From assembly GCA_005239945.1 (NCBI GenBank), contig SBAY01000363.1:1-44783 (forward strand): a stretch of 44,783 bases of DNA, read 5' to 3'. Shown in pieces: positions 4,296 through 33,364 of this stretch. Below the pieces are notes generated by a model, which saw nothing but the letters and a program-made list of their open reading frames with translations, had not been told where the DNA came from and ran no database searches. Position numbers and translations under genes: made by a program. Numbering within the stretch: position 1 is the first letter of the stretch; every line of letters starts with the position of its first letter. This DNA is from Nitrospira sp. Lineage in GTDB: Bacteria > UBA9089 > CG2-30-40-21 > SBAY01.

Positions 4296-4362
4296 TCGGT
4301 AATCAGGTAACTCTTTACCGATAACTGATTACCTTCTTCTCTGGGTCTCCGTGCCTCCGTGG
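4256..4362. repeat. nested palindrome (outer CCACGGA..CGGAG arms, inner GGTAATCGG/CCGATTACC-type arms)
   Basis: ccacggaaacacggagaaaaaggtaatcggtagttggtaatcggtaatcaggtaa ctc tttaccgataactgattacc ttcttctctgggtctccgtgcctccgtgg. It overlaps the stop codon of the upstream CDS and probably acts as a terminator hairpin. Confidence 0.75.
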
Positions 4363-4382
4363 TAAATATTTTAAAAAAATTG

Positions 4383-5784: not shown

Positions 5785-5792
5785 GAGAAAGG

Positions 5793-5881
5793 AAATAGGT
5801 AAAAGGTAATCGATAAAAGGTAATCGGTTATCAGGTAAGTAGTTACCGATAACCGATTAACTTTTACCGATTACCTTATTT
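5793..5881. repeat. GGTAATCGG-word palindrome
   Basis: aaataggtaaaaggtaatcgataaaaggtaatcggttatcaggtaa gtag ttaccgataaccgattaacttttaccgattaccttattt. A long imperfect hairpin that nearly fills the trxA-downstream gap. Confidence 0.75.
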
Positions 5882-7441: not shown

Positions 7442-7517
7442 GAATGGTAAATGGTTATCGGTAATCAGGTAATCGGTTGTTACCGATTACCTGATTACCG
7501 ATAACCGATTACCATTC
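7442..7517. repeat. near-perfect GGTAATCGG-word palindrome
   Basis: gaatggtaaatggttatcggtaatcaggtaatcgg ttgt taccgattacctgattaccgataaccgattaccattc. It starts immediately after the def stop codon. Confidence 0.85.
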
Positions 7518-8370: not shown

Positions 8371-9921
8371 ATGATAGCGATATTAGATTTTGGCTCACAA
8401 TATACACAACTTATTGCCCGGAGGATACGCGAACAACAGGTCTATTGCCGGATATTACCTTATAACCCAACACTTGAGGAATTAAAGGAGGCAAAAGGCA
8501 TAATCCTTTCTGGAGGTCCAGCAAGTGTTTATGACCAGAATGCACCGCATGGGGATCCGAAAATCCTGCAATTGGGTATCCCGGTATTAGGTATTTGTTA
8601 TGGTATGCAGTGGTTAGCTCAAGCCTTAGGTGGCGAGGTTAAGAAGGCAGCGCAAAGAGAGTATGGTAAGGCAAAACTGCAAATCATCGATTCAAGCACA
8701 ATGAGGCAAGCTTCAACAAAGCAAGCTTCACTTTTGGCAGGAATTTCTGCAGAAACTCAAGTCTGGATGAGCCATGGCGATAAAGTAGAACGTCTGCCTG
8801 ATGGATTTGAGATTATTGGTAAAACCACCAACTCGCCTGCCTGTGCCATTGGAAATCATCAAAAAAATATCTATGGGGTTCAATTCCACCCAGAGGTAAT
8901 TCATACCACAGGCGGCACGCAAATAATTAAAAATTTTCTGTTTAAAATATGTAATCTGAAACCTACCTGGACGATGGAATCCTTCATTGACCACTCGATA
9001 AAGAAAATCAGGACTGAGGTAGGCAAAAAGAAGGTTATTTGTGCCTTGAGTGGTGGTGTGGACTCATCTACCGTCGCCGTTCTTATCCATAAGGCTATTG
9101 GCGACCAACTTACCTGCATATTTGTCAATAACGGTCTGTTAAGGAAAAATGAGCCGGAACGCGTCATTAAAACCTTTAGGGATTATTATCATATCAATTT
9201 GGATTATTGTGATGCTCAGGAAAGATTCCTTACAAAACTTAAAAATGTCTCCAGCCCTGAGTTGAAACGCAAAATCATTGGTCATGAATTTATCAAGGTA
9301 TTTGAGGATGAGGCGAAAAAAATCGGTAAGGTGGATTTTCTGGCACAGGGCACCCTTTATCCGGATGTAATTGAAAGCATATCTACCAAAGGTCCTTCGG
9401 CGGTAATTAAGACACATCACAATGTAGGTGGTCTGCCGGCGAAGATGAAATTGAAATTAATCGAGCCATTCAGGGAGTTATTTAAGGATGAGGTGCGAAT
9501 TTTAGCCAAAGAGTTAGGTCTGCCGGATGAAATTATCTGGCAACACCCTTTCCCAGGGCCAGGATTAGCTATTCGGATAATTGGTGCGGCAAGTCCCAAA
9601 AGGTTAGACATCCTTCGTGAGGCAGATTGGATAATCGATGAAGAAATAAAGAAGGCTGGATTATATCGGTCGCTCTGGCAGTGTTTTGGGGTGTTTTTAC
9701 CGGTTAAAACTGTGGGGGTAATGGGCGATGAGCGAACCTATGAGAATGTCATTGCCATCCGTGCCGTTACCTCTTCTGATGCCATGACCGCTGATTGGGC
9801 TCAATTACCGCACTCACTGTTAAGTAAAATCTCTAACCGTATCGTTAATGAGATTAAAGGCATAAACCGGGTTGTCTATGACATCACCTCTAAACCGCCG
9901 GGAACGATTGAGTGGGAATAG
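8371..9921 (+). CDS. guaA: GMP synthase (glutamine-hydrolysing)
   Basis: 516 aa. N-terminus [18 protein letters not shown], the GATase CYGMQ active site, the ATP-PPase SGGVDSS motif, and the C-terminus KPPGTIEWE. Confidence 0.97.
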
Positions 9922-9983
9922 GGAGAAAGTAGTAACTTCCTATTGACTATTCCCTATTGCCTATTCCCTTACTAAAAAAATAC

Positions 9984-10046: not shown

Positions 10047-10826
10047 ATGGTTTCAACAGTAGAGATAAGAAAAAGATTGGAAGATGTATTTGAAGTGAGG
10101 CAAGCAATAGTACTTGCAGATGTAATCGCAACCTCCTATAATGAGCTTGTAAAAACGAGTGATTTCAATGAACTCAAGGGAATAGTGAAAGAGATTGCCT
10201 GGGAAATAAAGGATCTCACCCAGGCACAGAAAAGAACTGAAATTAAGGTAGAAGAACTTGGCGAGGCTCAAAAAAGAACTGAAATTAAAGTAGAAGAACT
10301 TGGCGAGGCTCAGAAAGAAAGCCAAAAAGAGATAAGCAGACTTGATAAAACTATGCAAAAACTTGCTGAGGCTCAGAAAGAAACTCAAATCGAGATACAG
10401 TCGCTTACCAGAGGATTGAAAGAGACAAGGGGAGAAGTCGGTGGATTATCCAGAAGTGTAAGTTATGCCTTTGAAAATGAAGCCTACAGGATGTTACCCA
10501 AAATATTGAAGGAAACTTATGGAATTGAGATGAAGGAAAAGTTTATCAGAACTGAGATTGCTGGCAAAGAGATAAATATATTGGGTAGGGCAAAAATGAA
10601 TGGTAAAAATGTAGTCGTCATAGGAGAGGCAAAATTAAGACTTGAGGATAGACGAAAAAAAGAAGATCAAGATGTATTTAATGAGTTGGAGGAAAAAGTC
10701 CAGGCAGTAAAAAAGAATTATAAAGAAGAGCCAATTAGGGTGTTGATAACCCACTATGCTACAAAAAGCTTTATGAAAAAGGCAAAGGATAAAGAAATAT
10801 TAGTCATTCAAAGTTTTGAATGGTAA
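10047..10826 (+). CDS. coiled-coil (DUF3782-like AQKRTE repeats) protein with a C-terminal PD-(D/E)XK-like nuclease-fold domain
   Basis: The N-half has repeated LxEAQK(R/E)TE heptad-like segments. The C-half EINILGRAKMNGKNVVVIGEAKLRL contains an E-x-K motif after beta-strand-like segments. From memory it resembles proteins often mis-annotated as chordopoxvirus fusion protein. Function unknown. Confidence 0.5.
   Translation: MVSTVEIRKRLEDVFEVRQAIVLADVIATSYNELVKTSDFNELKGIVKEIAWEIKDLTQAQKRTEIKVEELGEAQKRTEIKVEELGEAQKESQKEISRLDKTMQKLAEAQKETQIEIQSLTRGLKETRGEVGGLSRSVSYAFENEAYRMLPKILKETYGIEMKEKFIRTEIAGKEINILGRAKMNGKNVVVIGEAKLRLEDRRKKEDQDVFNELEEKVQAVKKNYKEEPIRVLITHYATKSFMKKAKDKEILVIQSFEW
10224..10307 (+). 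repeat. 42-bp in-frame tandem duplication (AQKRTEIKVEELGE x2)
   Basis: Units at 10224-10265 and 10266-10307 differ at 3 nt. Degenerate further copies (gctcagaaagaaa) follow at about 10308 and 10366. Confidence 0.85.
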
Positions 10827-11307: not shown

Positions 11308-11334
11308 AGATAGTAAAACAGGCATCTTGCCTAT

Positions 11335-11495
11335 GAGGTAAGATATGCCACAAAATCACTAAGACACAAAGAATTAGCATTGAGCAAAGAGCACGGAGCA
11401 GGGAAATTCTTTTTTCTCCAGGCTCTATGCTCCAGGTTCAAAGCTCTCTCTTTGTGCCTTTGTGGCTAAAGAAATGTGTGTAAAGGAGGAAAAAA
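11335..11495 (+). repeat. structured ~140-170 bp repeat, copy 1 (5' of the porin-like gene)
   Basis: gatatgccacaaaatcac..agacacaaagaattagcattgagcaaagagcacggagcagggaaattcttttttctccaggctctatgctccaggttcaaagctc..ctttgtgcctttgtggctaaa. Terminal inverted repeats are GCCACAAA...TTTGTGGC. The tail atgtgtgtaaaggaggaaaaaa carries the SD and is shared with copy 3. Confidence 0.85.
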
Positions 11496-13995: not shown

Positions 13996-16242
13996 ATGAA
14001 AAGAGTAAGCATAAAGACCAAATTAATATTTTTTAGCAGTGTTTTGATGGCGGCGGTGGCGATTGTCTTGAGTTGGTATTTTCTAACCAGTGCCTCAAAT
14101 TTACTGCATAATGAATTGGAGAAAAAAGGGATAGAGGTTGTCCGCAATCTGAGCTATACCGCCAGAGAGGGAATCCTGACCAAAAACCTTTTTAAAGAAC
14201 TTAACCCATTGATTGAGGCAACGATGTGTGACCGGGATATTGTCTATGTAGCCGTAGTGGATAGAGAGGGTATGGTGTTGGTTCATAGCAAACCAGAAGA
14301 AACAGGGAAAATCTATAAAGACGAATTAACTAAAAGAGCCTTTTTATCCCAAAAACCTGCTTGTTTAAAGGAGGCACAAGGAATTATTACTATTGGTGCC
14401 GTTGTTGAAATTGGGGAAAAAGGAACAACACCCCTTGAGATGACACAAGAGATGGAGCAGGAAGAGAAAGGCCCCATCGGTGTCATTCTTATTGGGATTT
14501 CCTTAAAAAACCTTTATCTCAAGATGAATAATATCTTAAAGATTAGCCTGCCAATAACCATAGGGTTGATAATAATTGGGATTATTTTTGCCTTTTTGTT
14601 TTCTAAAAGAATAATAAAGCCGATTATATCTATAGCCGAGACCTCTCATGCCATTAGTAATGGTGATTTAACAAAACGCGTTGAGGTCAAAACTCACGAT
14701 GAGATTGGGGAATTAGCTGCTTCTTTTAACCAGATGACCGAGAATTTGAGAGATACCCTGGATAAGCTGGAAAAGAGCAAAAGAGAGATAGAAGAGGAAT
14801 CCCTGGAATTGGCTATTGGATTGTCAGAACATTTCGAGGTGCTGAGAAAGGTTGCTTCAGGGGATTTGAATGTTAATGCCCCTCTGACTTCAAAAAATGA
14901 GTTGTTGGTTAAGCTGGGAGAAGTAATTAATCATACCATAGCAAATCTGAAAATATTCGCTGATGAGGTAACGGTGAAAAAAGAGTTGGATCAAATATTT
15001 AATCTGACAGCCTCTGCCATCAGGGTAATTGATACGGATTTTAATGTTATAAAAGCCAATGAAAGGATTGCTCGGCTTATTGGTTCAAATAATGAGAGTC
15101 TTAGCGGGGTAAAATGTTATGACCAATTTAAAACGGATTTCTGTCATACTGAACAATGTCCACTGAAAAGGATATTAGCAGGGGAGGAAATAATAGAAGG
15201 TGAAATAGAACATGTGATGCTGTCAGGAGAAAAAATCCATTGCTTATTTAAAGCTGTGCCTTTTTGTAATCAGGAAGGAAAGATAATCGGGATGTTTGAA
15301 GATATTCGAGATATAACGGAATTAAAAAATCTGCAGAGAGAAATTCAGAATACTTCGATGGAGATGACTCGAGCACTTTCTCAACACTTTGAAGTATTGA
15401 ATAAAATTAGCCATGGAGATATAAGTGAACAAGCGATAGAAGATTCTAAAATTGAATTAATTGCTGAACTTGGACAGGTGATTAATCGGACAGGCAGATT
15501 GATTACTGCCAGAATCCAGGAGCTTGAAGCCGTTAATAAAGAGCTTGATGCCTTCACCTACTCTGCCTCACATGACTTGAAAGAGCCTTTAAGAGGGATA
15601 CAGTCCTTCAGTCAATTCATTTTAGAGGATTATGCGGATAAATTAGACGACACGGGAAAGGATTATCTCAGGAGGCTATCCGCCTCGGCTAACCGAATGA
15701 AATCCTTAATCGATGATTTACTTGCCCTGTCTAGAATTTCACGGATAAAAAATCCTTATGCCTCCGTAGATACAAATAAACTTGTTAAGGAGATTTTAAA
15801 GCAATTAAAACCAATAATCGAAGAAAAAAATGCAAAGGTCGAAATAGATGACGAGCTTCCATTTATCTATTGTGATGAGGTTAAAATAAAACAGGTTTTT
15901 TATAATCTTATCTCCAATGCTATTAAATATAATGTTCAAAAGCCGCCTAAGATTGAAATAGGAATTGAGGAGCAAGTAGTAGCTGGAAGAACTCAATCAG
16001 TCTTTTTTGTCAAGGATAATGGCATCGGTATTGAGGAAAAATATTTTGAGGAGATATTTGGGATATTTAAACGGCTGCATCAGAATAATGAGTATGAGGG
16101 AGGAACAGGGATAGGATTGGCTATTGTCAAGCGGGTTATAACCGACCATGGGGGAAAGGTCTGGGTCCAAAGCCCCCCTGGTGAAGGAAGCACCTTTTAT
16201 TTTAGCCTGCCGGGGAAGGAAGAGGTAACCGGTAATCGGTAA
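13996..16242 (+). CDS. sensor histidine kinase (periplasmic domain-TM-HAMP-PAS-HisKA-HATPase)
   Basis: Two TM segments flank a domain of about 150 aa. HAMP (ISNGDLTKRVEV..DEIGELAASFNQM), a PAS with a Cys-rich CYDQFKTDFCHTEQCP segment, the H-box FTYSASHDLKEPLR, and N/G boxes (NAIKY, DNGIGI, GGTGIGLA). The last codons (..EEVTGNR) lie in a GGTAACCGGTAATCGGTAA word. Confidence 0.88.
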   Translation: MKRVSIKTKLIFFSSVLMAAVAIVLSWYFLTSASNLLHNELEKKGIEVVRNLSYTAREGILTKNLFKELNPLIEATMCDRDIVYVAVVDREGMVLVHSKPEETGKIYKDELTKRAFLSQKPACLKEAQGIITIGAVVEIGEKGTTPLEMTQEMEQEEKGPIGVILIGISLKNLYLKMNNILKISLPITIGLIIIGIIFAFLFSKRIIKPIISIAETSHAISNGDLTKRVEVKTHDEIGELAASFNQMTENLRDTLDKLEKSKREIEEESLELAIGLSEHFEVLRKVASGDLNVNAPLTSKNELLVKLGEVINHTIANLKIFADEVTVKKELDQIFNLTASAIRVIDTDFNVIKANERIARLIGSNNESLSGVKCYDQFKTDFCHTEQCPLKRILAGEEIIEGEIEHVMLSGEKIHCLFKAVPFCNQEGKIIGMFEDIRDITELKNLQREIQNTSMEMTRALSQHFEVLNKISHGDISEQAIEDSKIELIAELGQVINRTGRLITARIQELEAVNKELDAFTYSASHDLKEPLRGIQSFSQFILEDYADKLDDTGKDYLRRLSASANRMKSLIDDLLALSRISRIKNPYASVDTNKLVKEILKQLKPIIEEKNAKVEIDDELPFIYCDEVKIKQVFYNLISNAIKYNVQKPPKIEIGIEEQVVAGRTQSVFFVKDNGIGIEEKYFEEIFGIFKRLHQNNEYEGGTGIGLAIVKRVITDHGGKVWVQSPPGEGSTFYFSLPGKEEVTGNR

Positions 16243-17720: not shown

Positions 17721-17728
17721 CATAAAGA

Positions 17729-17895
17729 CTTCTGCGAAATAAGAAATGTTAAGCGAGGAGAGATATGCCACAAAGTCACCAAAACACAAAGAATTAGCAT
17801 TGAGCAAAGAGCACGGAGCATGGAAATTCTTTTTTCTCCAAGCTCTATGCTTCAGGCTCAAAGTTTTTTTAGTGCCTTTGTGTCTTTGCGGCTAA
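17729..17895 (+). repeat. structured ~140-170 bp repeat, copy 2 (5' of queC)
   Basis: Nearly identical core to copy 1 (..gatatgccacaaagtcacc..acacaaagaattagcattgagcaaagagcacggagcatggaaattcttttttctcc..). The upstream extension cttctgcgaaataagaaatgttaagcgagg is shared with copy 3. Confidence 0.85.
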
Positions 17896-17921
17896 TTAGT
17901 TGAAAGATAACGAGGGGAAAA

Positions 17922-18728
17922 ATGAAAAAGGCAGTTATCTTGCTTTCCGGGGGATTGGATTCTACTACCACCCTTTATTGGGCAAAAAATCAAGGATACA
18001 CTTGCGTCTGCCTGATTTTTGACTACGGCCAGCGACATCGAAAGGAAGTTCAATGTGCCATAAAAATAGCCGAGAGGATAGGCTGTGAATTCCAGGTAAT
18101 CAAATTCAAGTTTCCCTGGCTGAGAAGTGCGTTACTTGATAAAAGGATGCCTATTCCTAATTCCTCCTTAATAACGGGGGGCAGTGAATATCCCCCCTTA
18201 ATAAAGGGGGTCAGGGGGTGTTCCCCCTTAATAAAGGGGGTCAGGGGGTTGTCTCCTACAGAAATTCCATCTACTTATGTTGTTTCATCCAATCCAAAAT
18301 CCAAAATCCAAAATCCAAAATTCCAAACAGAAATTCCATCCACTTATGTTCCAGCCCGCAATACCATCTTTCTCTCCTTTGCCCTATCTTGCGCCGAGGC
18401 AATTGGGGCACAGACAATAATTATAGGGGCTAACGCCTTAGACTACAGTGGTTATCCTGATTGTCGTCCTGAATATTACGAGGCATTCAGGAAGGTAGCG
18501 GCACTTGGAACCAAACAAGGCGTGGAAGACAAACCAATAGAAATTCTTACCCCATTAATTAATAAGACAAAGGCGGAAATCGTAAAATTAGGGCTCAGCC
18601 TTAATGTCCCGTTTGAACTAACCTGGTCATGCTACAAAGGTGGCAAAAACCCCTGTGGGAAATGCGATAGCTGTTTGTTGCGAAGTAAAGGCTTTAACGA
18701 GGCAAAAATACAGGACCCGATATTATAG
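17922..18728 (+). CDS. queC: 7-cyano-7-deazaguanine synthase with a ~55-aa repeat-derived in-frame insertion
   Basis: SGGLDSTT PP-loop, DYGQRH, TYVPARN, DYSGYPDCR and the C-terminal Zn site CYKGGKNPCGKCDSC are all present. About 268 aa, against about 220-230 aa recalled for E. coli and B. subtilis QueC. The extra segment maps to 18161-18326. Confidence 0.88.
   Translation: MKKAVILLSGGLDSTTTLYWAKNQGYTCVCLIFDYGQRHRKEVQCAIKIAERIGCEFQVIKFKFPWLRSALLDKRMPIPNSSLITGGSEYPPLIKGVRGCSPLIKGVRGLSPTEIPSTYVVSSNPKSKIQNPKFQTEIPSTYVPARNTIFLSFALSCAEAIGAQTIIIGANALDYSGYPDCRPEYYEAFRKVAALGTKQGVEDKPIEILTPLINKTKAEIVKLGLSLNVPFELTWSCYKGGKNPCGKCDSCLLRSKGFNEAKIQDPIL
18161..18250 (+). repeat. 3 x 30-bp tandem hairpin units (CCCCC-TTAATAAA-GGGGG) inside queC
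   Basis: Units are ttcctccttaataacggggggcagtgaata / tccccccttaataaagggggtcagggggtg / ttcccccttaataaagggggtcagggggtt. They translate as SSLITGGSEY / PPLIKGVRGC / SPLIKGVRGL. Confidence 0.9.
18258..18350 (+). repeat. 24-bp direct repeat flanking a 45-bp AATCCAAAAT-word insert inside queC
   Basis: acagaaattccatctacttatgtt (18258-18281) and acagaaattccatccacttatgtt (18327-18350) both encode TEIPSTYV. Between them lies gtttcatccaatccaaaatccaaaatccaaaatccaaaattccaa, the same word as the intergenic hairpin arm at 21094-21125. Confidence 0.9.
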
Positions 18729-19790: not shown

Positions 19791-19899
19791 TATTTAAATA
19801 CCTCCTTGAATTATTAATTAAAAATTATGAATTAAAAATTAAAAATTGAGGGATAAGAAAGTATCTTTTCCTTGATTTTCAATTCATAATTCATAATTT

Positions 19900-20937
19900 T
19901 TAATTTCTCAATTTCTCTACTATTTTCTTGACTTCTTCTGCCCTTTCCTTGGCACAGATAAGGATAGCCTCTCCACTATCCACGATAATCAAATCAGAGA
20001 TTCCAAGTGTAGCAATCATTTTTTTATCTCCCCTGATGATACAATTTTGCGTATCGATTCCCACATGTTCACCCAGGACAACATTATTATTTTCATCTTT
20101 AGGATATATCCTTTCCAAAGCCTTCCATGAACCAACATCGTCCCAGATAAAATCCCCTTCGAGCATCAGGATATTTTTCGCCTTTTCCATTACACCAAAA
20201 TCTATAGAGATATTTTCTACCTCCTGATAGAATTCCTCTAACTCAGCCTCCCGGCAATTTTGAATTTTTATTAATCCTGAATATAACCCGGGCATAAATT
20301 TAGAAAAGGCATTAAGAATTGCCTGGACATGCCAGATAAATATACCACTATTCCAGAAATACCCTCCTTGAGCAATAAACCCCCTGGCGGTATCCAGATT
20401 GGGTTTTTCTTTAAATGAATGGACCTTATAAATAGAGATACCATTTTTTATCTCTACTTTTTTATCCACTTCTATATAGCCATAACCTGTTTCAGGACGG
20501 GTAGGTTTAATCCCAAAGGTGATAAGATTTTCTTTTTTTTGAGCCAACTCATAACCCAGGGATAAAATCTTTAAAAATTTCTCCTCATCCGGAATAAAAT
20601 GGTCTGCCGGTAAAACCACAAAGCTTGCGTCTTTATCCTTTTTCCTTAAGTACAAAGCGGCTAAGGCAATAGCCGGAGCAGTGTTCTTTCGCCCTGGCTC
20701 AACAATAATATTATCCTGAGTAAGACTACTAATTCCAGACAGAATTTTATCCCCGATGTTTTTATTGGTAACAATCAATATCCGCTCTCGTGGAATCAAA
20801 GGGGCAATTCGAGTAAGCGTTTCCTCTAATAATGTCTTTTTGCCTGTAATTGATAATAATTGTTTGGGTGTATCTGGTTTACTTTTTGGCCAGAATCTAT
20901 CCCCAAATCCACCTGCCAGAATCACACCATAAAGCAT
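19900..20937 (-). CDS. manC: mannose-1-phosphate guanylyltransferase (no PMI domain)
   Basis: ILAGGFGDRFWPKS N-terminal nucleotidyltransferase motif, VLPADHFI and GYGYIE. 345 aa. Confidence 0.8.
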   Translation of the reverse strand: MLYGVILAGGFGDRFWPKSKPDTPKQLLSITGKKTLLEETLTRIAPLIPRERILIVTNKNIGDKILSGISSLTQDNIIVEPGRKNTAPAIALAALYLRKKDKDASFVVLPADHFIPDEEKFLKILSLGYELAQKKENLITFGIKPTRPETGYGYIEVDKKVEIKNGISIYKVHSFKEKPNLDTARGFIAQGGYFWNSGIFIWHVQAILNAFSKFMPGLYSGLIKIQNCREAELEEFYQEVENISIDFGVMEKAKNILMLEGDFIWDDVGSWKALERIYPKDENNNVVLGEHVGIDTQNCIIRGDKKMIATLGISDLIIVDSGEAILICAKERAEEVKKIVEKLRN

Positions 20938-21019: not shown

Positions 21020-21218
21020 CTCAGGTAATCCCTCAGTTACCAGTTAATACCAAATGGATTTTGGATTTTGGATTGAGGAATCTTAATATCCTTAATCCAA
21101 AATCGAAAATCTAAAATCCAAAATTGTAATCGTAATCTGATACCTGATAGCTTACCAACCGGTAACTGAGGCATTACGTAATCGGTGATCGGTAAATATT
21201 TATCTGATTACCGATTAC
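21020..21218. repeat. compound palindrome: CCTCAGTTACC/GGTAACTGAGG outer arms, GGATTTTGG/CCAAAATCC inner hairpin, then a GGTAATCGG-word hairpin
   Basis: ctcaggtaatccctcagttacc..ggattttggattttggatt gaggaatcttaatatcctt aatccaaaatcgaaaatctaaaatccaaaatt..ccggtaactgaggcattacg, then taatcggtgatcggtaaatatttatctgattaccgatta. It lies between the lptC stop and the manC promoter. Confidence 0.8.
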
Positions 21219-21219
21219 C

Positions 21220-21768
21220 TTACTTAATAACTATCCGTACCTTTTCTTTGATTTCTATTCTATCCTTATCGGAATCAATTTCTAATCCATAACCGGACAG
21301 ATGTGCCTTGCCATAAATCACGGTTACCTTATCCGGTGTAATCAAAATTCCTGATTTAGCCCTCCACCTGAGGGTATTGGTTATAAATTCTGCCCCATCT
21401 TTAGTTACTGCTTTAACATCATTCTTTAGTTCGATATCCCTTGTTTGGGTATCTAAAATCCCTTTTTTAGCCGCTACATTTAGAATAGGTTCGTTAGTCT
21501 GTTTTGCTGAGAAAAATACGCATTTAATCTCCTCAAGATTGGTTTGTGTTTGAGTAACCTCTGCCTCTTTCGCCCATAATTCCCATTGTGGTTTACCACC
21601 TATTGTCTCTATGAGATGAAATCCACTCAAGCCTAATTCTGCACCTGGGGATTGGGTAGCGGAATCTTTCTCTGTCGGCTCTGTTTTATCCCCTTTTTTT
21701 ACTAAAAGCAAGATGATAATTAAAGTCAAAACTACGATGATTAGCCCATAAACCCTTAACTTCCTCAT
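21220..21768 (-). CDS. lptC: LptC-like periplasmic LPS-export protein
   Basis: A single N-terminal TM anchor followed by a beta-rich domain of about 150 aa. It lies directly downstream of, and is coupled to, kdsD, sharing one nt (21768) between the kdsD stop codon and the lptC start codon. The call rests on position and architecture. Confidence 0.55.
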   Translation of the reverse strand: MRKLRVYGLIIVVLTLIIILLLVKKGDKTEPTEKDSATQSPGAELGLSGFHLIETIGGKPQWELWAKEAEVTQTQTNLEEIKCVFFSAKQTNEPILNVAAKKGILDTQTRDIELKNDVKAVTKDGAEFITNTLRWRAKSGILITPDKVTVIYGKAHLSGYGLEIDSDKDRIEIKEKVRIVIK

Positions 21769-22814: not shown

Positions 22815-23004
22815 CTTCAATTCAGACATTAGACCATCGACTAAAGACTTAAGTCGTAAGCGGTTAGCCGAAAGATTACTCTTTCAGTTTTTGGAGGAGA
22901 CAGGTGTTCATCCATTATCTTTTTCTCCATCTGAAAGCTGACGGTTGAATGTTTACGACTTAAGTCTGATGTCTAAAGTCTGAAGTCTAATGTCTGAATT
23001 GAAG
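22815..23004. repeat. ~190-bp imperfect palindrome between the ybbR-like gene and kdsD
   Basis: Left arm cttcaattcagacattagac..gacttaagtcgtaa..ctttcag..tggagga. Right arm ttctcca..ctgaaag..ttacgacttaagtc..gtctaatgtctgaattgaag. Perfect sub-stems of 14 bp (gacttaagtcgtaa) and about 15 bp (ttcaattcagacatt). Confidence 0.8.
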
Positions 23005-23435: not shown

Positions 23436-23485
23436 CTATCCTCCCTGAATATAATTAACAATTAATAATTGATAATTGTTAATTG

Positions 23486-24274
23486 TTAATTGATTTCTGA
23501 CTTCTCTGTAAAACCTTCTGTCTCTTTTGCCTTATAAAGGGTAAGCATTTCTGTCAGGCTTTCTTCATCTAAATTACTACGCATCTTTCCATCCATGGCA
23601 ATAGATATACTTCCTGTTTCTTCAGAGACAACCAGAATTAAGGCGTCTGTTTCTTCAGATAGTCCCAGGGCCGCCCGATGTCTCGTTCCCAGTGGTATAG
23701 TTACATCAGGATTTTGAGTTAGTGGTAAGACACAACTTGCGGCTATTATTTTATCTTCCTGAATGATTACTGCCCCATCATGTAGGGGACTATCAGGGGT
23801 AAATATTGTCTTTAGCAGTTCATAACTTACCTCTGCATTTATTCTTACTCCTGTTTCTATATAATTTTTTAGACTTATATTTTGTCTTAAAACAATTAAT
23901 GCCCCTGAACCTTCCTTTGATAGAGCCATGATTACCCTTACAATTTCGGTGATTAATTTACTTTCTTGCTTGAAAAATTTCTTTAAAATATAATTTTTGT
24001 CAATTTCTCCTATGACTCGTCTTAATTCCGGTTGAAATAAAATCACAAAGGCTAAAGGTAAAATAGTCCATAAACTTCGAAGAATCCAATCTATCGTGTA
24101 TAATTGAAGTAAATGTGCACCAAAGGAGGCAATAATCAGAAAGGCAAGGACCTTCAACCCCTGGACAGCCCTTGTCTCTCTTATCAAGATAAATAACCAA
24201 TAAAAGATACAACTAATAAGTAATATCTCTAAAATATCTAAAAATCTAATTGCCAGTGGAAAAAAATTAATCAT
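23486..24274 (-). CDS. cdaA: diadenylate cyclase CdaA (3 TM + DAC domain)
   Basis: Three N-terminal TM helices, with the DAC motifs SPLHDGAVII, GTRHRAALGLSEETDA and VVSEETG. Confidence 0.9.
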   Translation of the reverse strand: MINFFPLAIRFLDILEILLISCIFYWLFILIRETRAVQGLKVLAFLIIASFGAHLLQLYTIDWILRSLWTILPLAFVILFQPELRRVIGEIDKNYILKKFFKQESKLITEIVRVIMALSKEGSGALIVLRQNISLKNYIETGVRINAEVSYELLKTIFTPDSPLHDGAVIIQEDKIIAASCVLPLTQNPDVTIPLGTRHRAALGLSEETDALILVVSEETGSISIAMDGKMRSNLDEESLTEMLTLYKAKETEGFTEKSEIN

Positions 24275-24332: not shown

Positions 24333-25595
24333 CTATCCTCTATTTATCGCCATTAAAAACTCCTTATTACTTTTTGTAGCCAGCATTTTCTCAACTATCA
24401 ATTCCATACTCTCAACCGGACTTAAGGGAGTAATTGCCTTACGCAGAAGCCAGACTTTATTTAAATCCGCTTCATCTAAAAGTAATTCTTCTTTGCGTGT
24501 GCCGGATTTAAGTATATTGATTGCAGGGAATAATCTGCGGTCAACTAAACTACGATCCAAAAGTACCTCCATATTCCCAGTGCCTTTGAACTCCTCAAAG
24601 ATAACATCATCCATTCTACTACCGGTATCAATCAAGGCGGTAGCTAAAATAGTCAAACTGCCGCCTTCTTCAATATTTCGTGCCGCACCAAAGAATCTCT
24701 TTGGCCGCTGTAAAGCATTTGAATCCACACCACCGGAAAGCACCTTACCTGAGGTAGGTACTACCTGATTATGTGCCCGGGCTAATCGGGTAATGCTATC
24801 TAAAAGAATAACCACATTGTGTTTATGTTCTACCAGCCTTTTTGCCTTTTCGATGACCATATCAGCTACCTGGACATGTCGGGTTGGAGGTTCATCGAAG
24901 GTAGAACTTATCACCTCACCCTTGACAGACCTTTCCATATCCGTAACCTCTTCAGGACGCTCATCAATCAATAAAACAATTAATTTTATATCCGGGTGAT
25001 TAGTGGTAATCGAATTAGCTAATTTCTGTAATAAAACCGTTTTCCCTGTGCGTGGTGGTGCCACAATCAATCCTCGCTGACCGGCTCCAATAGGTGTAAG
25101 TAAATCCATAATCCGCATAGATATTTCTTCTGCCCCTCGTTCTAAGTGAATCCTTTTCTGGGGATATAATGGTGTCAGGTTATCAAATAATATCCTATCT
25201 GAGGCCTTAGATGGGTCATTAAAATTAACAGCCTCTACCTTCAGAAGGGCAAAAAACTTCTCGTTCTCCTTAGGTGGTCTTATTTGCCCGGAGACCGTAT
25301 CCCCTGTCTTTAGACTAAATTTCCTTATCTGGGAAGGTGAGATATAAATATCATCAGGGGAAGGCAGGTAATTATATTTTGGAGACCTTAAAAAACCATA
25401 TCCATCAGGCAATGTCTCCAATACCCCTTCACCAAACAAAAGCCCTTTTTCTTGTGCTTGAGCTTGTAAAATGGCAAAGATAAGCTCTTGCTTTTTCATC
25501 CCACTTACACCCTCGATTTTCAAATTATGGGCTAAGTCGCTTAATTTTGAAATACTCATCCCTTGCAAGTCCACTAAGTTAAGTTGTGCTTCCAC
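24333..25595 (-). CDS. rho: transcription termination factor Rho
   Basis: 420 aa. GTG start with GGAGG 8 nt upstream. Rho N-terminal domain, the RNA-binding GFGFLR-like GYGFLRS, Walker A APPRTGKT, and the C-terminal SGTRKEELL. Confidence 0.96.
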
Positions 25596-25789
25596 TATTT
25601 TTTCCTCCTTTTACACACATTTTTTAGCCACAAAAACACAAAGACACTAAAAAGCTTTGAACCTGAAGCATAGAGCCTGGAGAAAAAGGATTTCCATGCT
25701 CCGTGCTCTTTGCTCAATGCTAATTCTTCGTGTCTTGGTGACTTTGTGGTACATCTCCCCTTCCTTAACATTATCTCATTTTGCAGAAA
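25596..25789 (-). repeat. structured ~140-170 bp repeat, copy 3 (5' of rho, minus orientation)
   Basis: The reverse complement reads ..ctgcaaaatgagataatgttaaggaaggggagatgtaccacaaagtcaccaagacacgaagaattagcattgagcaaagagcacggagcatggaaatcctttttctccaggctctatgcttcaggttcaaagc..gtctttgtgtttttgtggctaaaaaatgtgtgtaaaaggaggaaaaaata GTG(rho). Confidence 0.85.
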
Positions 25790-25795
25790 TCCTTT

Positions 25796-26762: not shown

Positions 26763-27017
26763 AATCGTTCAAAGGATGGAATTTTTGAGGGGGAAAACCT
26801 TTTGAAAAAGGTTTACCCCCTCAAACTCCCCTTTTCCAAAACTTTTTAACAACAAGAGTATAAAATTTTATTTACCCCATTTCTTATAAATGGGTAAATA
26901 AAATTTTATACTCTTGTGGTTAAAAAGTTTTTAGGAAGAGAGGGGTTTAAGGGGAGAGAAACATTTTTTTCAAAAAGGGTTTCTCTCCCCTTAAAAAACA
27001 CCTCTCTTTGAACAATT
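26763..27017. repeat. ~255-bp compound palindrome: closing stem plus three hairpins
   Basis: The closing stem aatcgttcaaag (26763-26774) pairs with ctttgaacaatt (27006-27017). H1 is 26784-26825 (tttgaggggg..ccccctcaaa). H2 is 26836-26935, a stem of about 45 bp (aaactttttaacaacaagagtataaaattttatttaccc / gggtaaataaaattttatactcttgtggttaaaaagttt). H3 is 26951-26990 (ggggagagaaac / gtttctctcccc). Confidence 0.85.
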
Positions 27018-29395: not shown

Positions 29396-30826
29396 ATGAA
29401 TTACGAGGCAGTTATTGGTTTAGAAACCCATGTTCAATTAAAGACCAAATCCAAGATATTCTGTGGTTGTTCGACTAATTTTGGGGCTGAACCTAATTCG
29501 CAGACCTGCCCGGTATGTTTAGGGTTTCCTGGTGTATTACCGGTTTTAAATAAAAAGGTGGTGGAACTCGCTCTTAAATCTGCCTTAGCCCTAAATTGTC
29601 GGATTACCCCAAATTGTAAGTTTCACCGCAAAAATTACTTCTACCCTGACCTGCCAAAGGCATACCAGATATCCCAGTATGATGAGCCATTGGCTATTGA
29701 TGGGTATTTAGATGTGGAAGGGGTTAAAATAGGGATTACCCGGGTGCATTTAGAAGAGGATGCGGGCAAACTTATTCATACGCAAGAAGGGGATAGCCTG
29801 GTGGATTATAATCGTTGTGGGATGCCGTTAATTGAGATAGTCAGCCACCCTGATTTAAAAACTCCACACCAGGCTTATGAATACCTCACGAATTTAAAAG
29901 CTATCCTCGAATACCTCGAGGTCTCAGATTGCAATATGGAAGAGGGGTCATTACGCTGTGATGCCAATGTCTCCATTAGACCTGTTGGACAGGTTGAACT
30001 CGGCACGAAAACCGAGGTAAAAAATATGAATTCCTTCAAGGCGGTAGAGCGGGCACTAACCTATGAAATAGAAAGGCAGATTAAGGTTGTTCAACAAGGC
30101 GAGCAAATTAACCAGGAGACAAGGTTGTGGGATGAGAAAAAGGAGATAACTACCCCGATGCGAAGCAAAGAGGAGGCTCATGATTACCGCTATTTCCCAG
30201 AGCCTGATTTAGTGCCGTTAGAGGTCTCACAGGAGTGGACAGAGAAGATAAAAGCCGGTATCCCAGAATTACCTCAAGCCAAAAGACAGCGATTCATGGC
30301 AGGCTACGAATTACCACCTTATGATGCCCAGGTATTGACGGCAAACAAATCTTTAGCCGATTTCTTCGAAAATACCACCAAACTCTATCCAAAACCAAAG
30401 ATGGTCAGCAATTGGATAATGACCGAGGTGTTAGGCTATTTAGCTGGGGCAAATTTAGATATTAGCCAATCTAAACTTACCCCAACACATCTGGTTAAAA
30501 TGTTAGAACTGATTGATACCGGCACGATAAGTGGTAAAATTGGTAAAGAGGTATTGCCTGAAATATTTAAAACCGGTAGAGCGCCGGTTGAAATAATTCA
30601 GGAAAAAGGGCTAACTCAAATCACAGATGGAGATGAGATAGTAAAGGTGATTGAGCAGGTAATCACGGAGAACCCAAAGGCAGTTGAAGACTATAAAGCC
30701 GGTAAAAAGGAGACATTAGGTTTCCTGGTCGGTCAGGTGATGAAACTGACCAAAGGTAAGGCAAACCCGCAGCTCACAAATAAACTTTTGCAAGAAAGAA
30801 TAGGACTTGACCTATTCTTGTTGTAG
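29396..30826 (+). CDS. gatB: Asp/Glu-tRNA amidotransferase subunit B
   Basis: Trimmed to [15 protein letters not shown], the canonical GatB N-terminus. Also [12 protein letters not shown] and a C-terminal YqeY-like GKANPQ region. The ORF-track start at 29297 reads through the promoter. Confidence 0.92.
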
Positions 30827-33325
30827 TGCGGCTAAACTATTTCTGGCTGGGCTATAATTTGGGTCTATGGCAAGCACCTTTTGAAAGGCATCTATGGCCT
30901 CAAACCTTTTCCCTAACTGCGAATAGGCTATACCAAGATTATAAAGTGCGGCGATATTCCCCGGCTTTAAGGAGATAGCCTTCTGGAAGGAGACAACGGC
31001 TTCATTTAGCTTACCCTTAGAGATATAGGCACTACCCAGATTTATATGAATAAAATCCTGGTTTGGGTCTAATTGGGCGGCTTTTTCGTATTCTGAAATG
31101 GCCTTATCCACCTCCCCTACCCTTTGATAGACCATCCCTAACCCATAGTAACCCTTAGCATCCTGGGGTCCAAGTTCGATAATTTTATTGAATTGTCCAA
31201 TTGCCTCTTGAGTTTGACCTGAGTCGTTATAGACCATGCCAATATTATAATAACTTATCAATCGTTCTGGGTCGGCCAGTAGTGCCTTTTGGTATTCTGC
31301 GATAGCCTGAGAATATTTACCCATATCCTTGAAAAACCCACCGCGATTGTTATAGGAAGTGGCATAGTTAGAAATGTTACTTGCTACCCGCTCTTCTTTA
31401 TAAATACTTTCGTCAAGTATGCCTCGATACCTAAACCGTAAGTTCTCATCTATGGCAGATAACTGTTCTTTTAAGGTTGCCTCCTTTTTGAAGACCCGAT
31501 GGCAGATGCCTGTCGGCACTAAGGTATAACCCTGGGCTATACTTTCATCAAAGGGTAGAAAAACAGGCCGATTGGGATTAGCCTCAAAAATGGCGTCAAA
31601 CCGTGTCTTGATAATTCGGCTTGCCTCGTCGGTTAGCCTTTTCACCCTGTTTTGCGGCACAAACTCAAAATTCAACTCCCGCTTAATCTGATTAGCATAC
31701 CAATCTAAATATAATGAATGCTGGTCAATTAAGGTTACATCCTGGCGGATATTTTCTACATAATGAAGATACCACAACGGAAAGGCAAAGGTATCGCCTT
31801 TGATGTAAAGGATTGATTTTTCGTCTAATGGGGAAAGGATATTCATCCCATAGTCATAAGAGTAATAATTTTTGCGGTGGTCTCCATAATGATGATTACA
31901 AGCCCAGGAAATTACCGGGATAAGAAGGAAAAAATAGGGTAGAAGGACAGCTAAAATCCCCTGCTTTATCCTTTTACCCAGCCACTCATTGAATATTCCC
32001 ACCCCATAGCCAATAAACAAACTATAAATAATATAAGACGGGATATAATAATCCTCGATGTTATGGATACTATACCTTGAGGAATGAAGAAAATCCACCA
32101 TAACAATTAACCCTAGGTAGATGAAGGTGTTCACCCTTTGTTTGTAGAAGAAAAACAGCCCGACAAATCCAATCCAAATGAGATATGGAGTGAATTGGTT
32201 GATGAAAAATATAGGGTGCTCAACAAATATTCGTTTAAGCAGGGTTGGAAGTGAGGTAGCAAAATAATAGCCATATTCCTTAGCCGTGATATGGTCAATA
32301 AACCGCTCAAAATTATCCGGGCAACCCCAGTTAATTATGGGATGGGCCGCGGCACGAACAGGTAAGTAGGCATATAAAATGATGGGTAGGAAAAACAGAC
32401 AGGCCATCTTAAGTATGGCGTTAAATGTTAAGAGGTTAGGGTGCTTGCGCCAGATTATGATGATAAGAAACGCACTTGCCGGCACTAAGAATATAGTTTG
32501 CAAGTGGTGGGTGAAGGCTAATCCGAGGGTGAAAGCGAATAAGTAAAGTAAGCCTGGAGCGTGGAGCGTGGAGCGTGGAGCGTGGAGTTTTTTTCTCCCT
32601 GCTTCCTGCTCCGTGCTCCGTGCTCCCCACTCCTTTCTCCCTGCTTCCTGCTCCATGCTCCGTGCTCCGTGCTCCATGCTTTGTGCTTCTACCCATTTCA
32701 GGAGGATAAAAATCAAGACAGTGGCAAACAAGGCATTCAGGGTGTATTTCTCGGCAATAACTGCCTGCTGCCAGAAGACACGGGCAAAACATAGCATTAA
32801 AGCGGCTATTACCGCAGGGATGAGGAACGAAAGCATGGAGCGTGGAGCGTGGAGCGTGGAGCGTGGAGCGTGGAGCGTGGAGTTTTTTTCTCCGTGCCCC
32901 GTGCTCCGTGCTCCGTGCTCCGTGCTCCTACCTACTTTTAAACTTATAAAATACACCATCATCACGGCTAAGGCGGCACTTGCAGCCGAAAATAGGTTGT
33001 AGCGATAGGCAATGTTGCCCAATGGAATAAGACTAAATAGCTTACCGAGGAGGCAATACAAAGGATAACCGGGTGGATGTGGAATACCAAGGGTATAGGA
33101 CGCCCCTATCATATCCCCGGAATCATGCAGGTCTATCGTTGGGGTTAAGGTATGAAGGTAAATAAAGAAGGAAAAGAGGAAGACTCCTATGCCCACAAAA
33201 TAATCAGGGAGGGTAAAAATTCTCGGCGTGATTACCTCCGTCGACGGTTTTATAAAATCCAATAAGGGTTTTTTCGAAGGCGATATTGATTTTGGCTTTG
33301 GTGATTTTTTCTTCTTTTTCCCCAT
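30812..33325 (-). CDS. DUF2723-type (TMEM260-like) GT-C membrane glycosyltransferase fused to C-terminal TPR repeats, with two repeat-derived in-frame insertions
   Basis: [24 protein letters not shown] is the DUF2723 signature as I recall it. Many TM segments, and at least 6 TPR units at the C-terminus ([26 protein letters not shown] ..). The start is set at ATG 33325 (MGKKKKK) because a consensus promoter occupies 33336-33364. Confidence 0.7.
32553..32690. repeat. GGAGCGT-heptad hairpin element inside the glycosyltransferase CDS (copy b, right arm duplicated)
   Basis: cc tggagcg tggagcg tggagcg tggagcg tggag tttttttctcc ctgcttcctgctccgtgctccgtgctcc ccactcctttctcc ctgcttcctgctccatgctccgtgctccgtgctcc. 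It translates on the minus strand as ..[43 protein letters not shown].. Confidence 0.9.
32833..32928. repeat. GGAGCGT-heptad hairpin element inside the glycosyltransferase CDS (copy a)
   Basis: (ggagcgt)x6 ggag ttttttt ctcc gtgcccc (gtgctcc)x4. It translates on the minus strand as ..[32 protein letters not shown].. between two hydrophobic segments. Confidence 0.9.
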
Positions 33326-33335
33326 CTTGATTAGT

Positions 33336-33364
33336 ATTATACCCCAAAAGCGTATTTTTGTCAA
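33336..33364 (-). promoter_or_regulatory. consensus sigma70 promoter (TTGACA-17-TATAAT on the minus strand) abutting the glycosyltransferase start
   Basis: The minus strand reads ttgaca aaaatacgcttttgggg tataat actaatcaag ATG(33325). Ten nt separate the -10 box from ATG, with no SD. Confidence 0.55.

Follow-up and report, generated by a model that had tools for sequence, protein, structure and literature searches.

How does a run of seven-nucleotide units, folded back on itself as a long palindrome, come to lie twice in the reading frame of a conserved membrane enzyme? The question is raised by a contig from an uncultured bacterium catalogued as Nitrospira sp. (SBAY01000363.1), the single 44.8-kb stretch of its genome that we analysed (hereafter the window), where the minus-strand gene of a DUF2723 glycosyltransferase carries two such heptanucleotide (heptad) palindromes, at 32833-32928 (insert 1) and 32553-32690 (insert 2). 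On the mRNA strand the palindrome has the form (GGAGCAN)n, an A/T-rich loop and (ANGCTCC)n. The inserts are part of a larger, lineage-wide and partly cross-phylum population of heptad arrays and hairpins that occupies spacers and a few protein loops. In our judgement they are probably tolerated palindromes that are copied, altered by slippage, and filtered by reading frame and orientation, and thus passengers rather than parts of the enzyme.

Cyanobacteria, Beggiatoaceae and some further groups have long been known for their odd heptanucleotide repeats, which have no accepted origin or role, and in-frame palindromic 'selfish' DNA is mainly a matter of Rickettsia. The locus joins the two fields: microsatellite-like hairpins sit within conserved enzymes, their occupants are swapped among close relatives, and the same units occur in Planctomycetota and in a candidate-phylum lineage. 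A checkable rule, by which the strand with the A spacers is the mRNA strand, points to a constraint at the level of RNA or transcription and, if it holds genome-wide, would offer a handle on the spread of such repeats and its limits. The matter is also practical, as the inserts inflate or split domain matches and can mislead gene callers and alignments in metagenome-assembled genomes (MAGs).

Two heptad palindromes in a membrane glycosyltransferase

Read directly from the sequence, the plus strand of insert 1 (96 nt, 32 codons) consists of six GGAGCGT units (32837-32878), GGAG (32879-32882), seven T (32883-32889), CTCC (32890-32893), GTGCCCC (32894-32900) and four GTGCTCC units (32901-32928). 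The sense strand thus reads (GGAGCAC)4-GGGGCAC-GGAG-A7-CTCC-(ACGCTCC)6-ATGC and contains the longest perfect heptad array of the window. Insert 2 (138 nt, 46 codons) has four GGAGCGT units (32556-32583), GGAG (32584-32587) and seven T (32588-32594) on the plus strand, followed by a doubled right arm in which tandem copies of 42 nt (six heptads, 14 codons) occupy 32592-32633 and 32634-32675 and degenerate units extend up to 32689. The A7 loop and the (ACGCTCC) arm, the latter with four units in insert 2, are common to the sense strands of both inserts and suggest that one site was copied from the other. Tandem Repeats Finder (TRF) agrees, with period-7 arrays at 32551-32587, 32595-32680, 32832-32882 and 32890-32928, and a second repeat finder gave matching arrays. 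The host open reading frame (ORF; 30812-33364, minus strand) holds four perfect heptad tracts, including the longest of the window (47 and 33 nt), and both inserts are translated in frame within it. The orthologues conserve the GTAGGTAGG that adjoins insert 1 as coding sequence (LKVG).

As RNA, insert 1 yields on its plus strand an unbroken helix of 40 pairs, 10 of them G-U (-63.0 kcal/mol, z -8.1), whereas the minus strand, which corresponds to the mRNA, forms 31 pairs with a single G-U (-49.8 kcal/mol, z -7.5), its 5-bp helices being parted every 7 nt by 2x2 A-C/C-A loops. Insert 2 behaves alike (-59.7 kcal/mol for the plus strand, -47.8 kcal/mol for the mRNA strand), and DNA folding parameters leave the ranking of the strands unchanged. 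The hairpin of insert 1 that had been described in an initial annotation is therefore correct base for base, as are the four left-arm heptads and duplicated right arm of insert 2 and the translation of both by the minus-strand ORF. The strand-asymmetric pairing noted there is equally real, and the comparison of fold energies that it called for favours the antisense strand in both inserts.

The host gene (30812-33325, minus strand; 837 residues from an ATG at 33325-33323) encodes a TMEM260-like GT-C glycosyltransferase with C-terminal TPR repeats. Its product matches Pfam PF11028 (TMEM260-like, formerly DUF2723; E 3.8e-35) and TPR families, and a profile of 65 homologues retrieved the TMEM260 protein O-mannosyltransferase (PDB 9rql) at E 6e-69; in a Foldseek search with the host model the TPR domain dominated the matches and nothing was gained on the membrane part. 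The ATG at 33325 is probably the true start, because the TTG at 33364 given in the ORF list falls within the -35 box of a sigma-70-type promoter (TTGACA-17-TATAAT, 33336-33364, minus strand) that agrees with the consensus at 12/12 positions and leaves a leader of about 10 nt before the ATG. The promoter sequence is also kept in the closest relative, L001, and orthologues of the host protein start with MGKKKK. The protein of this relative (P0002) has been called some 20 residues too short, for a similar cause.

Insert 1 corresponds to residues of about 146-178, between helices 118-145 and 182-201, and insert 2 to residues of about 226-271, between helices 207-249 and 269-286. In the AlphaFold model of the host protein (mean pLDDT 86, pTM 0.85), pLDDT drops below 50 at residues 150-172 and dips again at around 250-268, both between helices, and the 173 positions of the TMEM260-like profile are stretched across 224 residues. 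The placement of the inserts in loops between hydrophobic segments, which had been proposed together with a mapping onto an AlphaFold model, is thus upheld. In GT-C enzymes the N-terminus is cytoplasmic and Lys-rich and the catalytic Asp lies in the first periplasmic loop; the HDSGD at residues 80-84 is presumably the motif with this Asp. On the strength of this established topology, and not of a computed one, both insert loops would face the cytoplasm.

The host protein has its closest homologues in uncultured bacteria; among those with names, Candidatus Desantisbacteria and Nitrospirota are nearest, and the host itself stands near Candidatus Desantisbacteria. In a 16-sequence alignment no columns vary more in length than those of the two inserts, which are hypervariable among 65 sequences as well. 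Both loops were read at the DNA level in six orthologues (L001-L006). Each loop of L001 (83% identity) holds (AATCCAA)4, translated in loop 1 as NPKSKIQ. In L002, a GGAAGTG/CACTTCC hairpin occupies loop 1 and a GGAGCAC hairpin closed by TTAAAAA occupies loop 2, while L003 carries a degenerate form of the former in loop 1 and GTCAGAA units plus (AAATCAA)5 in loop 2. GGAGCAC-type hairpins fill both loops of L005 (43% identity), closed by A7 in loop 1 and by GGTAATA in loop 2. Loop 1 is nearly empty in L006 and in L004, loop 2 of the latter containing a GGAGCGT/GGAGCAC remnant. At the protein level, the loop 2 peptide ITDYRL of P0008 equals (ATTACCG)n, and orthologues of intermediate distance (P0009-P0016) are without such heptad peptides. 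Within one genome, both loops tend to hold one and the same family.

If the inserts were simple intruders, orthologues should have empty sites, as the initial annotation had expected. This test fails, because the orthologue loops are filled by other heptad families, or by the same one, and loop 1 is short only in L004 and L006. As far as the sequences tell, both loops permit the landing or turnover of elements, their occupant being replaced repeatedly, and are not the sites of single recent insertions.

Related elements in spacers and in other phyla

The family has five copies of 96-138 nt each in 44.8 kb, two in the ORF and three between genes. An exact 27-mer, for which the chance expectation is 0, is common to 11374-11400 (plus), 17794-17820 (plus) and 25697-25723 (minus). 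It marks an imperfect palindrome of 120 nt, periodic in NNNNAGC heptads, at 11347-11466 (plus), the downstream gene of which starts at 11496, a like cassette at 17774-17893 (plus) directly upstream of queC (17922), and a reverse-complemented one at 25640-25760 (minus) directly upstream of rho (24333-25595, minus). The three spacers (11308-11495, 17721-17921 and 25596-25795) align over about 200 nt with a mean column identity of 82%, always in the order of a conserved 35-nt lead-in, the 120-nt palindrome, a gap of about 15-20 nt, and AAGGAGG-N6-start codon (ATG or GTG). The genes that follow are unrelated (an ORF without known function, queC and rho), and neither a sigma-70 promoter nor a U-tract terminator was detected in the cassette. 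The palindrome core of these intergenic copies aligns with both ORF inserts, which together with the identical 27-mer bears out the suggested kinship with three elements in untranslated regions (11335, 17729 and 25596).

Two-armed elements of this type also exist far from the host. A scan of 185,579 species genomes on both strands with the pattern GAGCACGGAG-N5-20-CTCCANGCTCYA gave 17 genome matches, ten of which are real heptad hairpins that reach beyond the pattern; the other seven were chance occurrences in GC-rich coding DNA and were discarded. The real hairpins comprise L008, a relative of the window genome, one each in Bacteroidetes, Nitrospirota and Desulforhabdus (Desulfobacterota), and six in Planctomycetota. 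Intergenic hairpins lie between gyrB and gyrA, GGDEF and T2SS-M, yacP and aroQ, a sigma factor and a Ser/Thr kinase gene, rplY and pth (L015), and ferredoxin and FAD/NAD oxidoreductase genes. Three Planctomycetota copies are in frame and encode GARSTE..LHAP peptides: one in IleRS (L017, 5540-5615; KEQGARSTEKDSSELHAPSSTLHAP), immediately before KMSKS, one in an AAA_25 ATPase (L019; GSTEQGARSTSDSDSTLHAPCSTL) and one in a ketoacyl synthase (L020; ARSEEHGAGNTNSDSMLHAPCSPL). The last gene (650-1350) is split over two frames about 200 nt downstream of the hairpin, which may reflect either misassembly or a genuine frameshift.

The loop in IleRS behaves like those of the glycosyltransferase. Among more than 100 Planctomycetota orthologues, the segment from LAISTLLFG to YPHPFRNCIVLG ranges from 'PKDEN' up to about 75 residues, with occupants of the GGAGCAN type, the AATCCAA type (IQNPKSKI, SEIRNPKS), the CGAATGA type (RMTNDE...SFVIRHS) and the TCAGAGG type. 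The GGAGCAN and AATCCAA families thus occur both in this loop and in the lineage of the window. In L160 the IleRS DNA (846-1115) contains (TCTCAAA)5 and (AATCCAA)3 within a GC-rich gene, and such AT-rich arrays argue for import rather than local evolution. A protein search with the insert peptide returned 69 candidates, all of them short hypothetical ORFs.

Direct (GGAGCAY)3 arrays range more widely than the hairpins and were found on at least 120 metagenome contigs and 16 viral contigs; 133 of 144 were without an inverted partner, and two further two-armed hairpins came from the metagenome matches listed. In five viral and metagenome contigs (L024, L025, L038, L052 and L068) the context GCTTCTTTATGTAGCAG is followed by (GGAGCAT)3-5, which suggests, from the sequences at hand, that a conserved locus in some phage group may bear a GGAGCAT direct array.

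The GGAGC family is one of many in the window. Over its whole length there are 101 runs of 10 or more matches at lag 7 and 58 at lag 14, and 31 lag-7 runs persist with 32501-32950 left out; all other lags from 3 to 13 yield 0-2 runs, and shuffles and Markov simulations about 0-1. Period 7, 14 or 21 accounts for 29 of the 56 TRF rows, and the lag-7 signal is likewise present in the relatives L001, L003 and L008. Seven-nt tandem repeats are thus above chance, a trait shared with heptanucleotide simple sequence repeats (SSRs) and the short tandemly repeated repetitive (STRR) type. Spacers at 4-26 kb contain two-armed hairpins with 7-nt-periodic arms, the units varying by spacer (GGTAATC/GATTACC, AATCCAA/TGGATTT, AATTCAT, AGTCTGA, CCTATTC and ATAATTG); they lie at 4257-4353, 5789-5877, 7442-7517, 9911-9969, 19807-19914, 21055-21124, 21160-21220, 22824-22988 and 23453-23491. 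GGTAATC alone has 37 copies in the window against about 5.5 expected.

A second conserved enzyme of the window is also invaded. The queC gene (17922-18728, plus strand) carries an in-frame composite insert at 18160-18327, recognised by TRF and a split Pfam match, in which three 30-nt hairpin units (ATTCCCCCTTAATAAAGGGGGTCAGGGGGT; 18160-18249) precede an (AATCCAA)5 array (18291-18327). The QueC match is broken in two and the protein has some 50 residues extra, translated as ..SSNPKSKIQNPKFQTEIPSTYV.. (also given as ..NPKSKIQNPKFQ..). On either side of the array stands one copy of a directly repeated 24-nt piece of host sequence (18258-18281 and 18327-18350; 23/24 identical), so that TEIPSTYV is encoded twice, and this arrangement looks like an insertion footprint.

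Orientation, spread and rival explanations

It is the strand with the A spacers (GGAGCA-N ... A-N-GCTCC) that serves as mRNA, in each of the five window copies and in all nine scored copies outside the window (for the nine, two-sided binomial p about 0.004), i.e. in 14/14 combined, a count in which L008 is assigned from one base and the DUF2723 inserts depend on each other. Outside the window, the direction of transcription was taken from Pfam matches on neighbouring or host ORFs for eight of the nine copies and, for L015, from a reading of the flanking sequence. L008 has the unit in its self-complementary form, GGAGCAT/ATGCTCC. In the other copies each arm keeps the spacer A on the mRNA strand, and the base opposite it changes (C, G or A). 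Since a palindrome maintained at the duplex level would not retain A on one strand, the constraint is strand-specific.

In all five in-ORF copies the sense strand folds 5-13 kcal/mol more weakly than the antisense strand. The sense peptides consist of G/A/R/S/T/E/H/L/P, and the opposite orientation gives W/V/C/F-rich products (plus-strand ORF). For the copies in ORFs, a filter on the mRNA helix and a filter on the peptide both predict the observed orientation; the peptide filter cannot apply to intergenic copies. Szybalski's rule, the purine loading of mRNA-synonymous strands, is an additional, non-specific explanation. The suggestion that orientation is selected so as to weaken the mRNA hairpin therefore survives in part: the five in-ORF copies fit it, but the W/V/C/F peptides and the cassette with its ribosome-binding site allow other readings.

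The spread of the elements may be pictured in four steps. Sequence would be copied between loci, as indicated by the 27-nt identity in three spacers and by the A7 loop and arm that the inserts have in common; this step is drawn purely from sequence identity, and recombination or gene conversion, template switching, or some enzyme could be the copying agent. Each arm would then grow, shrink and homogenise separately through slipped-strand mispairing in 7-nt steps, which we infer from the perfect arrays with arms that differ consistently at two positions and from the 42-nt duplication. An ORF filter would keep those copies that have a length divisible by three, lie in a loop and present the A-spacer strand as mRNA, an orientation in which the mRNA helix is broken every 7 nt and the encoded residues are the small hydrophilic ones listed above. 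Over evolutionary time, the occupant of the loop would be exchanged for other heptad families.

Several observations weigh against this reading. The most perfect and longest arrays of the window sit inside an ORF, which a pure neutral-passenger model does not predict. Neither a target-site duplication, nor a terminal signature, nor a transposase was found for the window elements, so that mobility of the transposon type is unproven; none of the roughly 33 window ORFs examined with Pfam, which are concerned with housekeeping or signalling, is a transposase gene, and no target-site duplication was seen at the DUF2723 inserts or on comparison of the L017 IleRS with the near-empty L161, the flanks being too diverged to settle the matter. 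The orientation sample is small, one of its members being classed by one base. For the three intergenic window copies and for L008, L014 and L022, the fold of the sense strand equals or surpasses that of the antisense strand, and at -48 to -50 kcal/mol the sense-strand hairpins of the inserts are still very stable, 'weakened' being a relative term. Direct (GGAGCAY)n arrays in metagenomes have no orientation bias (12 vs 10 with co-directional flanks, 27 vs 25 with one flank), so the orientation rule belongs to the two-armed A-spacer elements and not to the heptamer as such; these counts approximate the genome-wide survey of orientation that had been proposed. Finally, the reading does not account for the recurrence of the same heptamers in distant phyla. 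Of the selfish palindromes envisaged by the initial annotation, the in-frame, loop-located elements with dispersed kin stand; their transposition found no support, as neither a target-site duplication nor a transposase turned up.

A bolder form of the idea, which we offer tentatively and regard as doubtful, would have a repertoire of heptad hairpins (GGAGCAN, AATCCAA and others) shared across distant phyla and spread by an undescribed, transcription-strand-specific copying that overwrites permissive loops of conserved and even essential proteins. It would amount to a pan-bacterial counterpart of the Rickettsia palindromic elements (RPEs), generating loop diversity and intercistronic RNA hairpins. 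Strand specificity could also mean that the hairpin acts in cis and has a function in the sense RNA, for stabilisation or processing, as a platform for an RNA-binding protein or as a translation pause, with the ORF copies co-opted or spilled over. The uniform sense orientation and the A conserved on the mRNA strand opposite a variable partner fit such a role, as do the cassette that sets a hairpin 15-20 nt before AAGGAGG-N6-ATG/GTG of three unrelated genes, rho and queC included, and the many hairpins that begin at or overlap stop codons. We nevertheless consider it unlikely: with many heptad units per genome no single sequence-specific reader fits, Rfam has no matching family, the hairpins are not followed by U-tracts as in terminators, their contexts vary by phylum (intercistronic, 5' of a start codon, with a promoter after them, inside ORFs), and unrelated units are swapped in one protein loop. 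That the plus strand encodes a structured antisense RNA with a selected G-U helix, as the initial annotation had contemplated, is very improbable. The plus strand does fold 12-13 kcal/mol better than the mRNA strand, into a continuous helix with 9-10 G-U pairs, but no promoter-like site was seen on the plus strand near the inserts, and Rfam gave no match at the gathering score for the whole window, permissive thresholds yielding only generic miRNA-precursor hairpins far below it. Moreover, the AG, AA or AT spacers that many family members possess give C-T/T-T mismatches or plain pairs on the antisense strand, not G-U, and the intergenic copies in operons provide no rationale for it.

Other explanations place the weight on the repeats themselves. 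A 7-nt unit is not a multiple of three, four perfect tracts share one ORF that encodes an envelope glycosyltransferase, and orthologues hold unrelated perfect tracts at both sites ((AATCCAA)4 twice in L001, (AAATCAA)5 in L003), so gain or loss of a unit could shift the frame and act as a phase-variation (contingency) switch of a surface-modifying enzyme; SSR-mediated switching at the transcriptional and translational levels has been reviewed (PMC4679880, PMC12721329). Against this quite unlikely reading, the window gene and all eight close orthologues are in frame, like elements occur in IleRS, ketoacyl synthase and queC, where on/off switching would be senseless, and the abundant spacer arrays have no tie to surface genes. 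The arrays might instead have grown in situ from chance seeds by slippage that prefers 7-nt steps, with likeness across loci and phyla due to convergence. Heptanucleotides are the most over-represented long SSRs in many prokaryotes, and a 7-nt polymerase footprint has been put forward as a possible cause (Mrazek 2007, summarised in PMC4679880 and PMC4692102). The direct arrays of three or more GGAGCAY units, common (at least 120 metagenome loci) and unbiased in orientation, and the independent homogenisation of the insert arms, agree with local growth. Convergence, however, does not account for the 27-nt identity and 200-nt alignability of the three spacers, and the loop and arm common to both inserts, the AT-rich AATCCAA and TCTCAAA arrays within a GC-rich Planctomycetota IleRS, the complete two-armed hairpins whose core recurs across genes and phyla that are unrelated, and the 24-nt host duplication around the queC array all make local growth distinctly unlikely as the whole explanation. 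An assembly or amplification artefact, with collapsed or chimeric repeats, is hardly credible: perfect short tandem and inverted repeats are indeed hard to assemble, but the ORF stays in frame through both inserts, independent NCBI, JGI and Logan assemblies show heptad arrays at both loops, and many unrelated MAGs share the architecture.

Relation to known repeats and minor features of the window

RPEs are palindromic elements of about 100-150 bp in coding and non-coding DNA that lie in frame in many Rickettsia genes, with a recurrent peptide and at positions compatible with the fold (PMC10969869). The elements of the window and of other phyla are likewise palindromic, dispersed and in frame, in DUF2723 (twice), queC, IleRS, AAA_25 and ketoacyl synthase. 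They differ in being built of tandem 7-nt units that expand and contract, with many unit families and one architecture, in the exchange of the loop occupant among orthologues, in their occurrence in several phyla rather than one genus, and in their strict orientation. The relation that we propose is one of functional analogy, not of family membership.

Among heptanucleotide repeats, cyanobacterial STRR sequences reportedly go back to Mazel in 1990, and small dispersed repeats are said to have been treated by Elhai in 2008. TAACTGA repeats occur in Beggiatoaceae, Cyanobacteria and Bacteroidetes without a known route of transfer, some of them overlapping stop codons or lying in ORFs (PMC4679880), and arrays of GGGAATC in Xanthomonas and of GGGGA(T/C)T in Nostoc occasionally form inverted pairs (PMC4692102). 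A lineage-specific excess of 7-nt repeats, mostly intergenic and patchy across phyla, is found here too, G-rich GGGATTC/GGGGTTC arrays included. The known cases, however, are mainly direct arrays with one dominant unit per genome, whereas the present ones are two-armed hairpins of many units. In-frame occupation of enzyme loops, family replacement and the A-spacer rule are not reported in the heptanucleotide-repeat literature examined, and a full-text search for heptad strings and peptides (GARSTEH, IQNPKSK and others) returned no relevant paper.

Repetitive extragenic palindromic sequences (REPs), with the related bacterial interspersed mosaic elements (BIMEs) and REP doublets forming hairpins (REPINs), resemble the present elements as short imperfect palindromes at gene 3' ends and between cistrons, in many copies, that may serve as mRNA-end hairpins. 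REPs are extragenic by definition, lack heptad periodicity, bear a tag (GTAG or CGTC) and are linked to REP-associated tyrosine transposases (RAYTs) (PMC3733652, PMC3116915). Here, two copies lie inside the DUF2723 ORF and their kin in other ORFs, the elements are heptad-periodic, the intergenic copies end in GCCACAAA...TTTGTGGC without either tag, and the window has no RAYT gene. Bacterial MITEs (miniature transposable elements with inverted repeats; Correia/NEMIS, ERIC, BOX, RUP) are non-autonomous dispersed palindromes of about 100-200 bp that can form in-frame ORF fusions and carry regulatory signals (PMC10969869). The cassette of about 200 nt with its ribosome-binding site is reminiscent of these, but it has no terminal inverted repeats apart from the stem, neither a target-site duplication nor a parent insertion sequence was identified, and its interior is a microsatellite. 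With SSR contingency loci the glycosyltransferase shares a frameshift-prone tract within a surface-related ORF; it differs in that length variants were not observed and all orthologues are in frame, essential genes also carry tracts, and the lineage is free-living and uncultured with tracts everywhere. Integron attC sites, K-turns and Shine-Dalgarno/anti-Shine-Dalgarno sequestration were also considered as analogies but not adopted. The elements would thus act like RPEs and be built like heptanucleotide SSRs, and we claim no membership of the RPE, REP or MITE classes for them.

The gene content of the window is otherwise ordinary, with fumarase, thioredoxins, def, guaA, two-component kinases, queC and GDP-mannose enzymes as well as lptC, cdaA, rho, lpxK, gatB and pilT. 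Several spacer hairpins overlap the stop codon upstream of them or begin at it, e.g. GGTAACCGGTAATCGGTAA at the end of the ORF 13996-16242, and such hairpins are few in the right-hand third of the window (33-44 kb). A nested hairpin at 4251-4367 (plus strand) has outer arms CACGGAG/CTCCGTG, a rotation of GGAGCAC, around an inner (GGTAATC)n/(GATTACC)n hairpin, and from its sequence it looks as if one element lay in the loop of another. Between the fumarase gene and that of a PMT_2-type glycosyltransferase, a G-rich heptad array (GGGATTC/GGGGTTC/GGGGTCC, 2258-2309) folds 13 kcal/mol better on the plus than on the minus strand, and its units resemble the quadruplex-forming GGGAATC/GGGGATT repeats of Xanthomonas and Nostoc. 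Upstream of lpxK, a 530-nt spacer is crowded by three long and almost perfect non-heptad hairpins (26784-26995) with arms of 20, 40 and 24 nt and 92-98% complementarity. In the ORF 10047-10826, which has no Pfam match, a 42-nt unit is repeated 2.3 times (10222-10316, 92% match) and would encode an in-frame 14-residue protein repeat.

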